A DNA stretch of 63,668 nt, the filler included, from Olpidium bornovanus S191 (Eukaryota; Fungi; Olpidiomycota): assembly GCA_017911155.1 (NCBI GenBank). It is 33 parts of 33 records of this genome, joined end to end, with 100 filler letters (N's around TTAATTAATTAA, not from the genome) between each part and the next. Parts side by side here need not be neighbours in the genome. Positions count along the whole stretch, not along the records: positions 33,045 to 36,591 come from JAEFCI010011407.1; 32 more parts are not named here. One strand, given 5' to 3'. Both the position numbers and the translations under genes were made by a program. The notes beneath the pieces were generated by a model that had not been told where the DNA came from, searched no databases, and worked only from the letters and a program-made list of their open reading frames with translations. Below are positions 33,045 to 51,093 of the stretch, piece after piece. Position 1 is the stretch's first letter; each line of letters begins with the position of its first letter.

Positions 33045-34539
33045 ATGGAAAACCCCGGTGGCATCCCCGCCGTCGACGCAGCGCTTCTCGGACAGGTCTG
33101 CTATGACTCGGGCCACGTCCGAGACTGTCGGCACCGGCCGCGCTTTTCAGCAAACAGAAACATGGCGCTCTCCCCGATGCGCGCGTCCGCGAAGCCTTTC
33201 CGGTTAAACGTACCGTTCGTGGGATACCGGATAGCGTAGTCGTCCATCTTCACGGGCGCACGCTTCTGTCGGCGGATTCACCAAAAGGCATAATTGACAA
33301 ATCGCGGACAAAAAAAGCTTGTAGATTGACGGCAGCGTGCGGCGAGCGCGTGCGGACTACCTTCACCGCAGTAATCAGGATGTTGACCGCAGACTCGTCT
33401 TCCGATTCCGCCTCCCCGTAGAGTACCGGGACCCGGAGCACGGCGGCGTTCGCGTGCGCGCGCAAAACGGCTTCCTCCCCGCGGAGCTTGCTCAGACCGT
33501 AAAAATTCAGCGGGTTCGGTTTCGCATCCACCTCGTACGGGGCATTCTGAAAAATCGGGAAGCAAAACGTCGGAAAGGAAGGTATCAGACGGTCAGATTC
33601 GAGGAAGGTCGAGAAGGGGGTGCGGCGCATAAAAGCGGAGTGGAACGAAAGCGGCCACGCCCGGTCTCTCCGGAGACGAGGTACCTCACCTTGCCATCGA
33701 AGACGTAATCCGTCGATATGTATATCAAAAACGTCTTCTTGGAAGAGCCCGCGCAGATTTCCGCCAGGCTTTCCGGAACCGCAACGTTAAGCTGGAACGC
33801 CCCCCACACACCCACGCCGCGAGTTTCTCAGCGCGCTGACGTCCGCGTACAGATTCAGATTCTCCTTCCCGAAGGGCTTGCTACCTTTAACACGTCGTCG
33901 CGACGGTTTTCGCACACGTCCGGGCGCCGTTCCGCTGCGCAGTGGACGAGTACTGCGAAAACCCGACGGCTTGAGCCGCGGAGCGACGAGCTTCCGAACC
34001 GGGGCGGGCCACAAAGCACAAACAAGCGTACCGTCGGGGCTGACACTGTTGACGAGCTCCTTGACGGCTTCACGGTCCGTCAGGTCGAACCGCACCAGGG
34101 GATGTCTGGGGCGGGAAAGCGCAAGGCCGACAACTGCGGGGATCGGCCGAAGACAGGCGGCCAAAAAAAAAAAAAAAAAAAAAAATGACGGAATTTGGAT
34201 TCGCGTCCACGGCCGGCGGCGCGTTTTGACAAAAACGAAGGAAAACGACGGCATTTTGGGTCCTGCGAATTTTTTTAACGGGAGGTGCAACGTACCGTTG
34301 TGGTGCCGGCGCTCGAACTCATTGAAACCCGCTCTGCCGAGCAAGCCGCTGGATCAAAAAGCGGACGATTTCGATTTTAATAACCCCCCCCCCCCCGCCC
34401 CCAACCCTCCTCCCGCCCGCGCTCCACTCTCCCTCCTCTCCATTCCCTCCCCCTCCCCCGCAATAAAAGCGCTCGGGAGCAACCTGGCGCCAGTCACGAG
34501 GACGGTAAGCCGCGCCGAGTCCGAGAGCGGCGGCGCCAT
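33045..34539 (-). CDS. MAT2B / RmlD-like (dTDP-4-dehydrorhamnose reductase family) SDR, 3' truncated, multi-exon
   Basis: TVLVTG..GRA, DLTD, VHCAAERRPDVCE, LNV, LIYISTDYVFDG, PYEVDAKPNPLNFYGLSKLRGE (YxxxK), LRVPVLYG, DDYAIRYPTN, DVARVI. Confidence 0.92.
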
Positions 34540-35329
34540 CACGCCCCGCCCACAAACGCGTCAAAAAGAGCTGGTGGGAGCGGCGTGTCGGGGAAGGGCG
34601 GGGCGGGCGTTTTCCCGGCGTGCGGAGATTTGACGGCTTGGGTGTGGCGTCGGCCAAGGGTGTCGCGTAAACAGGCTCAAATACCGACGGAGAGTGCACG
34701 GATGCGAAGACAAGAAGGCGAAAGAGCGGAGTGAAGGTGAAGCAGAAGCGGAAGGTGAAGCAGAGCTTTGTTTTCTTGTTTACTTCCACGAAACTATAGG
34801 ACGCCCATCCAGTCTATTTACTACTAGCCCTTTTATGGCGCGGAAGGGCTGCAGGGAAAGGGGGGGGGAGGGGGAGGGGGAGGTTCTTTTCGCACTTGTG
34901 CTGCGCCTGCATTCTCTGATTCCCCACCTCATTAGGCGAGAAAAGAAAATTGTATATTCATAGAGCTACCTGTCCTTCGTGGTCGCGCCAAATTTCTTTC
35001 TTTTATCCGCCTCTTAGAAACTTTTCTTCCCGGGAAAAACGCAATGCCCTTTTCAGGCTTTTCGCACCCCTTGAGCATCTCCTAGAATTTTGTGAATGTC
35101 ACCTTCTCCAGAGGTTTGGTGATTATGTCCGCGGGATTTTGCAGATGCCATTCACTCAATGGCAATCACTTTGTCCGCGATGCATTTGCGGAGATGGTGG
35201 TACCGAACGTCGATATGCCTTTCAGCGTGCTGACATCCTTTGCTGGTTATATGATACCTTCGCTCGTTTTATGGTACCATTGTTGTTTATGTACAGCTTC
35301 GTCTCCTCTTTGAACGCCGGTCCCGTCTA

Positions 35330-36170
35330 TTGCCTCGAGGACCGATCAAAGCCATAGGGTTTCTTGCCCGGCCATCGATCCTGACACGTTTTGTGACACA
35401 CTCCGGGTCGCACTCACACAAGGAACCGCTGGCTTTTTGGAAAATTTGCAGATGTTGGTTAAACTTGGTAGGAAGGAAATCCTACCAAGTTTCATCTGCA
35501 CCACCTGGTGTCGGGCGTTCATATGCAAAGAAATTAGTAGATCATCAAGGTTTCAGTAAGGATGTGAGAAAATTCATTAGCCACAATGAATATCACGATA
35601 TTGACACTGTAAATTGTCACCCTGTAATCCTTTGTCAACTATTTGCAATGTGTGACATTGCTGTTCCTGGAAGACTTTCTGAATATTGTAAAGACAGAGA
35701 CACCATTACTCAAAAGTACAATTTCAAAAAAGAAGACCTACTTATTTGTATAAGCAAAGATACCTTTAAATCATTCATTGCTTTTTTTATCAAATGTAAA
35801 TAACGCAATTTATTCTTTACTTGTGCCAGCATTAAAAACAACACCGGCATTATTTGGCCATATTTTGGAATATGTATCATCTGTGAGGTCGAGGTCATTG
35901 GAGTGGCTAGTTTGTCCTTCACTGGCTAAACAAGATATTACAAAGAAAAACCAAAATGGAGAGTTTGTTGCACTTGTGTGTCAAACAATCGAGAACTTGA
36001 TTTTGTTATATACCAGTTCTTTGTAGATGAGGGTTTTGATGTACTAGTATTTGATGGTGTTATGATTAAAAAAAGAAAACAAGTTATCTTTTTCCATTCT
36101 TGAGAAATGTTTTGAAAAAGTGTTAGAAGAAACGAATCTTAACATTACCCTGGCTGAAAAAGGCCTGTGA
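35330..36170 (+). pseudogene. TV-Pol (transposon-viral family-A DNA polymerase/primase-like), frameshifted relic
   Basis: In order across frames: GRSYAK..QGFSKDVRKFI..YHDIDTVNCHPVILCQL (motif A, 35597-35623), LSEYCKDRD, NGEFVALVCQTIENLIL (about 35955-36005), DEGFDVLVFDGVMI (motif C, FDG at 36050-36058), LEKCFEKVLEETNLNITLAEK. Intronless and AT-rich. Confidence 0.8.
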
Positions 36171-36591
36171 GCCTTCAAAAAAGTTTGTTAATGATGCACA
36201 AATTCAGCATGAGTTACCATCTGTTACACAAGATGAACATTTTGACCCGATGCTTGCTGTCAACCTGTATGGAGAAAGTGCAGTGCCATTCATTCATTAC
36301 ATGAACTGCTTTTTTGCCAATTACGCACGATGATTCAGCCTGGTTTTGCTTCCGGCGTAGCCCAAATGAGCCGTACTATTTTGCGTGACAAACAGACTTC
36401 ACGTGAAGTATTTGAACAGTTCAGAATTGCAGTTAAACCCAACCAAATACTGCCAGTTTTTGATATATGGAGTTTGTCTCCTGAAATGAAAACTTATGAG
36501 AAAATTGTGTTTGGCTCTTCTTATCAGTGATGGGATAAATCTAGACCTGTTCTGTGGGTTCAAGGCAGAACTGGTATTGATGAGATGCATG
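36171..36591 (+). pseudogene. Start of the D5-like/SF3 helicase module that follows TV-Pol, decayed and cut by the contig end
   Basis: HYMNCFFA, FDIWSLSPEMKTYEKIVF and NLDLFCGFKAE resemble the W..P....Y..IVF.P..N.F.GF.A stretch upstream of viral SF3 helicases. Walker motifs would lie beyond 36591. Confidence 0.6.
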
Positions 36592-36691: not shown

Positions 36692-38060
36692 ACCACCACG
36701 CCCAGGCGTCCCCGAGGTCCGGGTTGAGCTTCACGGCCTTCTGGAACCAGCCGCGGGCCTTTTCGTATTTGCGCTCCTGCCAGAACAGCCGCGCCACCGT
36801 GATGAAGACATGGGGGTCGTTGTCGCACTTTTTGAGCGCGTCCACCGACTTCGAGCGCCGCTGGTTACGCTGTTCGAGCAGGATGGCTTCCGACCACACC
36901 AGGCCCGAGTTGGGGCATTCCTGCAAGGCTGTATGTGTGAAAACGGCGCGCGCGGTCAGCATTCCTTTTTTTCTTTTTTTTTTATTCTTTTTTGTCCGGT
37001 ATCCCGCAGGCAAATTTGGCAGATACGGCCCCCCATCATCAAATATTTACGCGTCAACCCCTCCCCCCCCCTCCTCCTCCTCCTCATCCTCCCCCAGACA
37101 ACTTGCCTTTCGCGGTCAATGCCTTTGCAATAGTCGTGTTTCCTGCCCTGTTCTCCACGCGAATCGCCTCCACCCACATTTCTGGCACTTTGGGATTGAG
37201 AAGGCGGCCTCTTTCCAGGATAGCGCGGGCCTTTACGAGCATCCCTGTCAACTCCTCCAGCCGGCTGGAAAGAAGCCAGAGAGGAATGCTCTTCGGGCAG
37301 GCCTTGAGGCCTTTCGAGTACGCCTCGCGCGCCGAGGCTACGTCGCCGTGGTGCTCGTGGTGGATTTGGCCGCGGATTATGTGCAGCTTGTGGAAATTCG
37401 GGTACTTCACCAGCGCCTCGTCGAGCAGCTTGAGCGCCTCGTCGTAGTGGCCCAGTTGCCTCTCGAGAACAACCGATTTCATCCATACGCGCTGGGCATC
37501 CGAAGCGCGCTCTCGAGCGTGCTGCAAGAGCGTCCGAGCCCGCTCGTGTTGACCGGTCTCCCACTCGAGCTTCACTGCCGCCAGCCAGATCTGCTCGCTT
37601 TCCGGGTTCACCTTGAACGCCTCGGTGAGGATAGCCTGCGCGCCAGGAACGTCGCCGGCCAACCACCTCTCCTTGGCTCCCATGAGCCAAAACATCTCGG
37701 CCCTTGGGCAGAACTTGACTGCTCGCTGGAGCAGCTCATCGAGAGAATGTCTGGAGAGAGTGACCACGGATCAGCCGCCGGAACTTCACACAAACGTGAC
37801 CGACTAACTTTTCGAATTCATTTAAATCACCTTGTTCCATGCTGTTTCTCCAGAAACGCCGCCCGTCTCCACAAGCCTTTCTTACTCGGGAACACTTTGA
37901 GCGCATGCGCGTAGATCGCCCGCGCCGTCTCTATGCTGCCATGACTGATGGCGCTCTCCGCGTCGTCAACCCAGGTTTTCTTGGCATCTTCATCCAGCAC
38001 GTTGAGAGCGACGGTCAGCCGAACGACGGTCTGGCACGTGACTACAAATCCTTGCTTTTC
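36692..38060 (-). CDS. PRP6: Pre-mRNA splicing factor PRP6 (U5-102K), internal/C-terminal HAT-TPR region
   Basis: [117 protein letters not shown]. Confidence 0.98.
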
Positions 38061-50057: not shown

Positions 50058-51093
50058 TCAGATGTGCCCGGGGGTCCGACTGGCTATATAGGTACAGGTC
50101 ACGTGCCATTCGAGGCCGAACACTACAGAAGCCTTTCCATTTGAGCAAAAGTCCCAGAGTTCCATCTTCATTGAGGTGATGTGCCAGAACTCGTTCAAAG
50201 AGGAATTCATTAGAATCTCCATCATCCGGCTTCTCATCCAGTTGCGAGATGTCAAACGGCGCATAATGTTTAGTGTCTTTGGCGTGGTAATTGCATCAGG
50301 GTCCAAAGGAGTAGAAACCAGATGGCAGTTCGCATAATTCCTTGTTGGCAATAAGCGCATGATATACTGTTCTTGATCCACAGTGACTCCTCCTTGATGT
50401 GTAGACACCCACATGCCAAGAATTTGAGTCAAAGGACCACCTAGGGACAATTCAAATTCCTTTGCCAACTGGTTTTTGAGATGTTCCAAAGACTCAAGAT
50501 GTGGCCCGACAATTACAAGATCATCCACGTACACAGCAAGAAGAGTGACAACCTGGTCTTGAGATCGGCGAACATAAAGACATGGCTTGTGGGAAACCTG
50601 ATCAAACTGCAGATTTTTGAGTTTTTTATCGATTTCACGGTTCCACACGTGTGCCGATTGGCGGAGACCATAAATGGCTTTATTTAACTTCCAAACATGC
50701 GTCGAATAATTGTGGGGCAGGCCAGTTGCTGTCTCTGGTTGCTACGTATAGACATCGTGATGCAGCGGCGCTTGTGAATAGGCCGTAACAACATTATGGC
50801 CGCGGATGTGCCAACAGCGAGACGTGGCCAAGGCGATCATCAGTCTCAATGCAGAGTGTGCAACAACAGGTGCAAAAGTCTCATCAAAATCAACATTCTC
50901 AGCTTGCGTGAATCCCTGAGTGTTCAGTTGTACGTTGCGTTTGGTCGGAACCCCACAATGTATTACTACTAGTATGCCTCTGAAACACACATTCTCAGCT
51001 TGCGTGAATCCCCGAGTGTTCAGTTGTACGTTGCGTTTGGTCGGAACCCCACAATGTATTACTACTAGTACGCCTCTGAAACGCGTAAAATAC
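50058..51093 (-). mobile_element. Ty1/copia reverse transcriptase (RVT_2) pseudogene
   Basis: QGFTQAENVDFDETFAPV, TAYSQAPL..VYT*QP, WKLNKAIYGLRQSAHVWN, PCLY, LAVYVDDLVI, LGM..V.QEQYI, STPLDP. In-frame stop and decayed ends. Confidence 0.95.
50893..51082. repeat. 96-nt tandem duplication at the 5' break of the copia RT
   Basis: Copies start at 50893 and 50989 with two internal substitutions. Confidence 0.95.

Follow-up and report, generated by a model that had tools for sequence, protein, structure and literature searches.

TV-Pol is a family A DNA polymerase type defined by a thumb, an arginine hairpin, two palm aspartates and an RxxxK motif (Iyer et al., 2008; PMC2579912), and PolA-S3H fusions are described as common in virophages as well as in Polinton-like viruses (PLVs) (PMC3671162; PMC11071308). 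Among early-diverging fungi, integrated PLVs have been reported in Spizellomyces punctatus and Allomyces (Bellas and Sommaruga, 2021; PMC7805220), and A32 ATPases in numerous chytrids (bioRxiv 10.64898/2026.06.19.733378). From Powellomyces, six MELD viruses are described whose non-PolB replicases vary, with a figure legend that includes PolA and S3H (Starrett et al., 2021; PMC8502044). The initial annotation of the locus analysed here, which called it a decayed TV-Pol-SF3 helicase module, thus overstated the case when it described such elements as poorly documented in this host group, given that they are reported from Spizellomyces, Allomyces and Powellomyces as well as from many genomes of chytrids. 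It was also mistaken in listing Tlr1 as a carrier of the TV-Pol-SF3 fusion, as the helicase of this transposon is of the SF1 type and is accompanied by a family B domain (PMC5499653).

The locus lies in a 63,668-nucleotide stretch of Olpidium bornovanus S191 DNA (the window), which consists of 33 small contigs joined by 100-base N linkers, each of which puts a stop into every one of the six frames; contigs that flank a linker are not true neighbours. The viral fragment forms the right end of the 3.5-kb contig at 33045-36591, whose end truncates the gene. It is a broken, truncated TV-Pol-SF3 helicase gene, probably left by a Polinton-like virus that integrated in an early-diverging fungus, and is likely functionless. 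The features that matter to this reading are:

33045..34846, minus strand: 5' part of a MAT2B/RmlD-like host gene with seven GT-AG introns (Pfam RmlD_sub_bind, 6.5e-13; human MAT2B, 2e-13)
34933..35446, minus strand: repeated element, now decayed, that separates the host gene from the viral fragment and probably represents a Ty1/copia pol gene at its RNase H end
35447..35500, no strand assigned: fold-back hairpin (21 bp, 6-nt bulge, 6-nt loop) that marks the viral fragment's left end
35480..36167, plus strand: TV-Pol (family A polymerase-like) domain with its 5' end missing and three frameshifts, placed by homologues, profile and alignment to the relative P0031
36168..36577, plus strand: a linker together with the N-terminal part of an SF3 helicase module of the NrS-1/D5 type, with four frameshifts, placed by alignment to P0031 and profile
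36692..38060, minus strand: Prp6/PRP1 splicing factor fragment, on the contig next to 33045-36591

The viral fragment and a spliced host gene share one contig: all seven MAT2B-like introns are spliced out in contigs from public sequencing runs, which match the window without indels and reach 34846. Contigs from three runs (X1, X3 and X5) also match the 50 bases at 33050-33100 with unrelated sequence on both flanks, perhaps because of a paralogue or repeat. The Prp6 fragment is 64-68% identical to proteins of Neocallimastix, Jimgerdemannia, Basidiobolus and Rhizophlyctis, a similarity by which the host is placed as an early-diverging fungus; no flagellar genes were found by Pfam in 282 window ORFs (138 of 197 long and 144 of 864 short ones).

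Across 35480-36577, the window encodes the first ~410-residue stretch of a TV-Pol-SF3 helicase fusion, spread over seven frameshifts. When the 104-residue first fragment was used as a phmmer query against 1.84 billion proteins, 273 homologues were recovered at E 0.001 or better (best 1.6e-14). Domain scans of 36 of the 150 listed homologues placed D5_N and/or DUF5906 in 32, a PIF1 helicase in one and no domain match in three, and Pfam DNA_pol_A matched neither these 36 relatives nor the window fragments. A profile built from 40 relatives detected three window pieces (122, 34.7 and 9.8 bits), the latter two of which lie downstream and outside the original query. In a frameshift-aware alignment to 151 proteins, P0031 scored highest (408, with 121 of 323 aligned residues identical), followed by P0029, P0098 and P0070; 20 shuffles scored against P0031 gave a mean of 36 (+/- 3) and a maximum of 42, so the viral homology is not due to chance. 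The polymerase part aligns to P0031 residues 66-267, and the N-terminal part of the NrS-1/D5 module is present and colinear behind it (E 9e-6, probability 83% for the helicase-side piece against a 4-sequence profile). The contig ends at P0031 residue 410, and Walker A lies at residue 464, i.e. ~55 codons further. The proposed TV-Pol identity is borne out by homologues, by structure models of relatives and by colinearity, and the same evidence backs fusion to an SF3 helicase, of which only the part ahead of the absent Walker A and B motifs is present.

The seven raw fragments had no match in Pfam or PHROGs at E 1, a word-indexed protein search with the first fragment had no match among 39 candidates, and IMG/VR scans with the fragment, P0005, P0031 or alignment A4 yielded no confirmed match, while P0098 and alignment A7 gave short, weak matches only. 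Alignment A4 had 0 of 593 matches confirmed in JGI metagenomes, and residues 1-420 of P0031 as a query added 2 further relatives only. In the Atlas, the nearest clusters are without name, one being mostly Preplasmiviricota, and the recognition score was below threshold.

Structure models of P0031 and P0006, which serve as stand-ins for the window's own sequence, agree with this identity. In the P0031 AlphaFold model (mean pLDDT 75), residues 4-269 match Klenow (Z 12.9, rmsd 3.8, 253 aligned), Pol theta (Z 12.5) and other family A enzymes, and residues 304-724 match the NrS-1 helicase 6k9c (Z 22.7) as well as SaPI5 and poxvirus D5 proteins; among viral models, matches over its full length include the replication proteins of the Qinghai Lake virophage (E 1e-25) and Zamilon (7e-24). 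For P0006, modelled as the domain alone (pLDDT 92), 31 matches reach E 0.001 or better, and family A polymerases head this list. These models predict a family A palm with thumb and fingers and without a fused exonuclease. The domain of ~265 aa, its fusion to SF3, the lack of a DNA_pol_A match and the absence of introns set it apart from cellular Pol I, theta and gamma, polymerases of 600 aa or more with an exonuclease domain, and the gene clusters with polymerases of the viral type, not with cellular ones.

The diagnostic residues of TV-Pol are mostly in place. The hairpin arginine is invariant in 40 relatives (R60) and is found in the window as GR at 35513, the palm aspartates D87/D89 and D224 are invariant in the same relatives, and the motif A (DID..N.HP) and motif C (FDG) signatures named in the initial annotation both occur in the window with their aspartates kept. 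Of the RxxxK motif, the lysine is kept and the arginine is absent, and the fingers are short. By a crude pattern count, R...K occurs in 2 of 17 clade members versus 74 of 182 other proteins, and this loss marks a subfamily rather than decay, because intact relatives share it. As judged from its sequence, the gene is a short-finger variant of TV-Pol, predicted to work like TV-Pol.

The peptides quoted in the initial annotation were all recovered at their positions in the three plus-strand frames, and the AT-rich block it described is evident as 24-44% GC in 100-nt bins across 35440-36591. Its start at 35330 needs revision, as viral homology begins near 35470-35480 and 35330-35447 belongs to another, opposite-strand element. 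The GC content of 35480-36591 (36.5%) is below that of all 127 sliding 1.1-kb windows of the other contigs (minimum 44%), and the viral fragment is without introns. Alignment to P0031 with a clade profile covers residues 66-410 with no in-frame stop and places the seven breaks near 35796, 36008, 36069, 36169, 36320, 36378 and 36523; the first ~50 codons of the gene, where the N-terminal thumb helices would be expected, are absent at the copia join. The 0 stops in 355 codons compare with ~2.8 expected (P ~0.06, range 0.00-0.35), an expectation derived from the indel/substitution ratio of the copia pair described below, and 4 of the 7 breaks are near homopolymer runs versus a background of 22% (P ~0.05). 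A stop-free reading with seven frameshifts and a homopolymer bias fits assembly error as well as it fits decay; many apparent lesions of endogenous viral elements are reported to be assembly artefacts (Bellas et al., 2023; PMC10120064). The CpG observed/expected ratio of the viral fragment is 0.43 and its TpG ratio 1.44, compared with a median CpG ratio of 0.91 in 40 relatives of like GC. This loss fits methylation-driven decay, yet depletion is missing from the neighbouring copia piece (1.07) and is also seen in some free relatives (0.21-0.29). Independent coverage of 35425-36591 was absent from the 8 runs searched of 24 listed, which does not amount to silence or absence of the element.

The segment between the host gene and the viral fragment carries, in three frames, motifs that we take to be those of a copia RNase H. 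Its probable assignment to the RNase H end of a Ty1/copia element comes from these motifs; Pfam, the Atlas, the window's other copia piece and the literature gave no support. That other piece, at 50061-50741 on the minus strand of the window, is a copia-type reverse transcriptase fragment (Pfam RVT_2, 1.5e-30) that ends before RNase H. A soil-metagenome contig carries a diverged version of 34933-35349 that differs by 36 substitutions and 4 indels, and on another contig there is an identical piece up to 35144. The hairpin that follows the segment contains a perfect 13-bp inverted repeat and has a predicted stability of -19.2 kcal/mol as DNA (z -6.3; 0 of 200 shuffles were as stable). Its right arm is viral coding sequence that encodes the strand before the conserved arginine. 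A viral terminal palindrome, for which a bioRxiv report (10.64898/2026.07.28.741278) served as the source of comparison, was also considered as the origin of the hairpin and ruled out, since the right arm lies within the coding region and is not followed by a terminal repeat. In the 8 runs, the copia-virus join is spanned by neither an independent read nor an independent contig.

Phylogenetic analysis of 211 domains (283 of 322 were long enough, then thinned at 75% identity) places the window in an 18-member clade with a FastTree support of only 0.69; in a 48-sequence subset chosen around the window, SH-aLRT values were 92 for this clade and 93 for an inner group of 15. The 17 other members are one protein from a bacterial MAG, nine without a name, and seven chytrid proteins from five species: KAI8916797 (Powellomyces), KAI9091430 (Phlyctochytrium), KAI9017265 (Gaertneriomyces), KAJ3288762, KAJ3279618 and KAJ3263532 (Borealophlyctis), and KAJ3001258 (Thoreauomyces). 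Three of the chytrid members are on contigs of 0.25-1.96 Mb, and none of 13 proteins looked up outside the clade is named as fungal. The helicase type varies among close TV-Pol domains, with D5_N in the Borealophlyctis protein P0029 and NrS-1 in P0070 (Phlyctochytrium) and P0098 (Powellomyces); together with P0122, these proteins suggest helicase swapping inside the chytrid clade. Other arrangements were seen at two metagenomic loci (L092:153-3823 and L084:91-3739), where a TV-Pol-SF3 gene is head-to-head with a separate PIF1/SF1 helicase gene, and in P0149, where an SF1 helicase is fused ahead of a TV-Pol-like stretch. No published description of the chytrid TV-Pol clade was found in literature that did not extend to subscription papers, bioRxiv supplements and some figures, and supplements or figures may already include it; one supplement of Starrett et al. 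(2021) contains no match to the clade.

The class of virus is suggested by the neighbour genes of relatives. Within the clade, the MAG member (locus L161, 17-kb contig JAOBWH010000204.1) has an A32 ATPase gene directly upstream of its TV-Pol gene (Pfam 5.7e-8, above the cut-off) and two S74 fibre (fibre-chaperone) genes. Genes without a name at this locus are presumed to encode capsid, penton and tyrosine recombinase; the presumed capsid and recombinase had no family match. This is the single own-clade locus behind the argument for a Polinton-like layout. The layout, at L161:1-12722, is deposited inside an Ilumatobacteraceae MAG, and a near-identical protein occurs in a Saccharibacteria MAG; the locus is probably mis-binned eukaryotic virus DNA. 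Among 160 further loci from IMG/VR and JGI metagenomes (the best 80 of 146 and the best 80 of 483, respectively), none is in the clade or scores above 231. With our own iterated profiles, an A32-like ATPase or capsid was found in 45 of the 71 related loci of at least 10 kb and an integrase in 23 of the 71. In the sister group, neither a capsid nor an ATPase was found at any of 9 loci, some of which resemble giant-virus DNA: L001 is in a giant-virus MAG bin and L083 has a ligase, a methylase and EsV-1-7 repeats. A Polinton-like virus is therefore likely rather than firm as the class, and of the initial assignment to a PLV or virophage the first part survives, by way of relatives, whereas the virophage part has no specific support, as it is only the replication protein that resembles those of virophages. 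The window itself contains no capsid, penton, ATPase or integrase gene and no other copy of the element by blastn or tblastn with all ORFs of loci L001-L160, and no terminal inverted repeat is present on contig 33045-36591, where the element is bounded on its left by the probable rearrangement join and is cut on its right.

From these data a sequence of events can be proposed. In the intact virus, as predicted by Iyer et al. (2008), the genome would be primed and copied by the family A domain, with the D5/NrS-1-type helicase serving to unwind it. By analogy with relatives, integration would probably have used a tyrosine recombinase or an RVE integrase. A later rearrangement would have removed the first ~50 codons and joined the gene head-to-head to the probable copia remnant; the hairpin is compatible with fold-back-primed repair synthesis at a break, either in the cell or during amplification. 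Small indels would have accumulated after this rearrangement.

Competing accounts were considered. The join could be an artefact in which virus DNA, free or integrated elsewhere, became fused to a host contig during amplification or assembly, leaving the hairpin as a template-switch scar. Inverted joins are typical of amplification chimeras, and this one has its fold-back exactly at the join, is bridged in 0 of 8 runs and occurs in a highly fragmented assembly (33 contigs in 64 kb). However, the gene of a free virus would be expected to be intact, whereas this one has seven frameshifts and CpG loss; moreover, the host and copia parts equal independent data letter for letter to 35144, and relatives are resident in chytrid chromosomes, so that we regard a chimera as unlikely. 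The frameshifts raise a separate question, as some or all of them could be errors of sequencing or of the consensus at a contig end that has low coverage or is present in several copies, in which case the integrated element would be younger and more intact. The absence of stops, the four breaks near homopolymers, the intact catalytic residues and the artefact lesions of Bellas et al. (2023) all point that way. Against this, ~2 kb of the same contig, homopolymers included, is free of indels relative to other runs, three breaks are away from runs and the copia join has cost the gene its 5' end, which together make a younger element very improbable.

The gene could also stem from a giant virus (of the Nucleocytoviricota, e.g. 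Mycodnaviridae) or from a mobile element that carries TV-Pol but has no capsid. Integration of giant viruses in zoosporic fungi has been reported (PMC13533422), bacterial replicative transposons also carry TV-Pol (PMC2579912), and the sister loci L001 and L083 lack capsid and ATPase matches. In contrast, the own-clade locus is Polinton-like, with an A32 ATPase on a 17-kb contig, an ATPase or capsid occurs in the majority of long related loci, and cultured phages, among the best 25 of 220 matches, match the helicase half of P0031 only; we regard either source as unlikely. A broken gene from an integrated Polinton-like virus is the reading we retain as the most likely.

Taken alone, this broken gene at the end of a contig reveals no new mechanism, yet with it the list of hosts of mid-size DNA viruses grows by one early-diverging fungus. 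What is most worth following is the chytrid-rich clade and its short fingers: seven unannotated chytrid proteins are now tied to one TV-Pol clade that can be used as a probe for whole fungal proviruses, and the short-finger subfamily is a testable case of the smallest size of a family A polymerase. As a tentative extension, with the odds against it, there might be a fungus-infecting PLV lineage in at least five chytrid genera plus this host, with a minimal family A enzyme of ~265 residues that, having lost the nucleotide-binding RxxxK arginine of its fingers, would likely use a rebuilt active site or be mainly a primase, and perhaps with a near-intact provirus past the contig end.

Compared with known systems, the gene is closest in plan to the replication proteins of Sputnik (V13), Zamilon, the Organic Lake and Qinghai Lake virophages and many PLVs, which have the same PolA fold N-terminal to an SF3 helicase (PMC2579912; PMC3671162). 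It shares with them the arginine hairpin, the two palm aspartates and the lack of an exonuclease, and its intact relatives are about 700-900 aa; it differs from them in its short fingers, the absent RxxxK arginine, a helicase of the NrS-1/DUF5906 type, its truncated and frameshifted state and its position in a separate, chytrid-rich clade. Like the PLV and MELD viruses of chytrids, it represents genes of mid-size DNA viruses in early-diverging fungi, but those are whole elements with capsid genes, here compared by their descriptions only, whereas the window holds a lone broken gene. The Powellomyces and Phlyctochytrium proteins belong to the same TV-Pol clade and also align through the helicase-proximal part; unlike the window gene, the chytrid members of this clade are annotated open reading frames, those of Borealophlyctis with a D5_N-type helicase.
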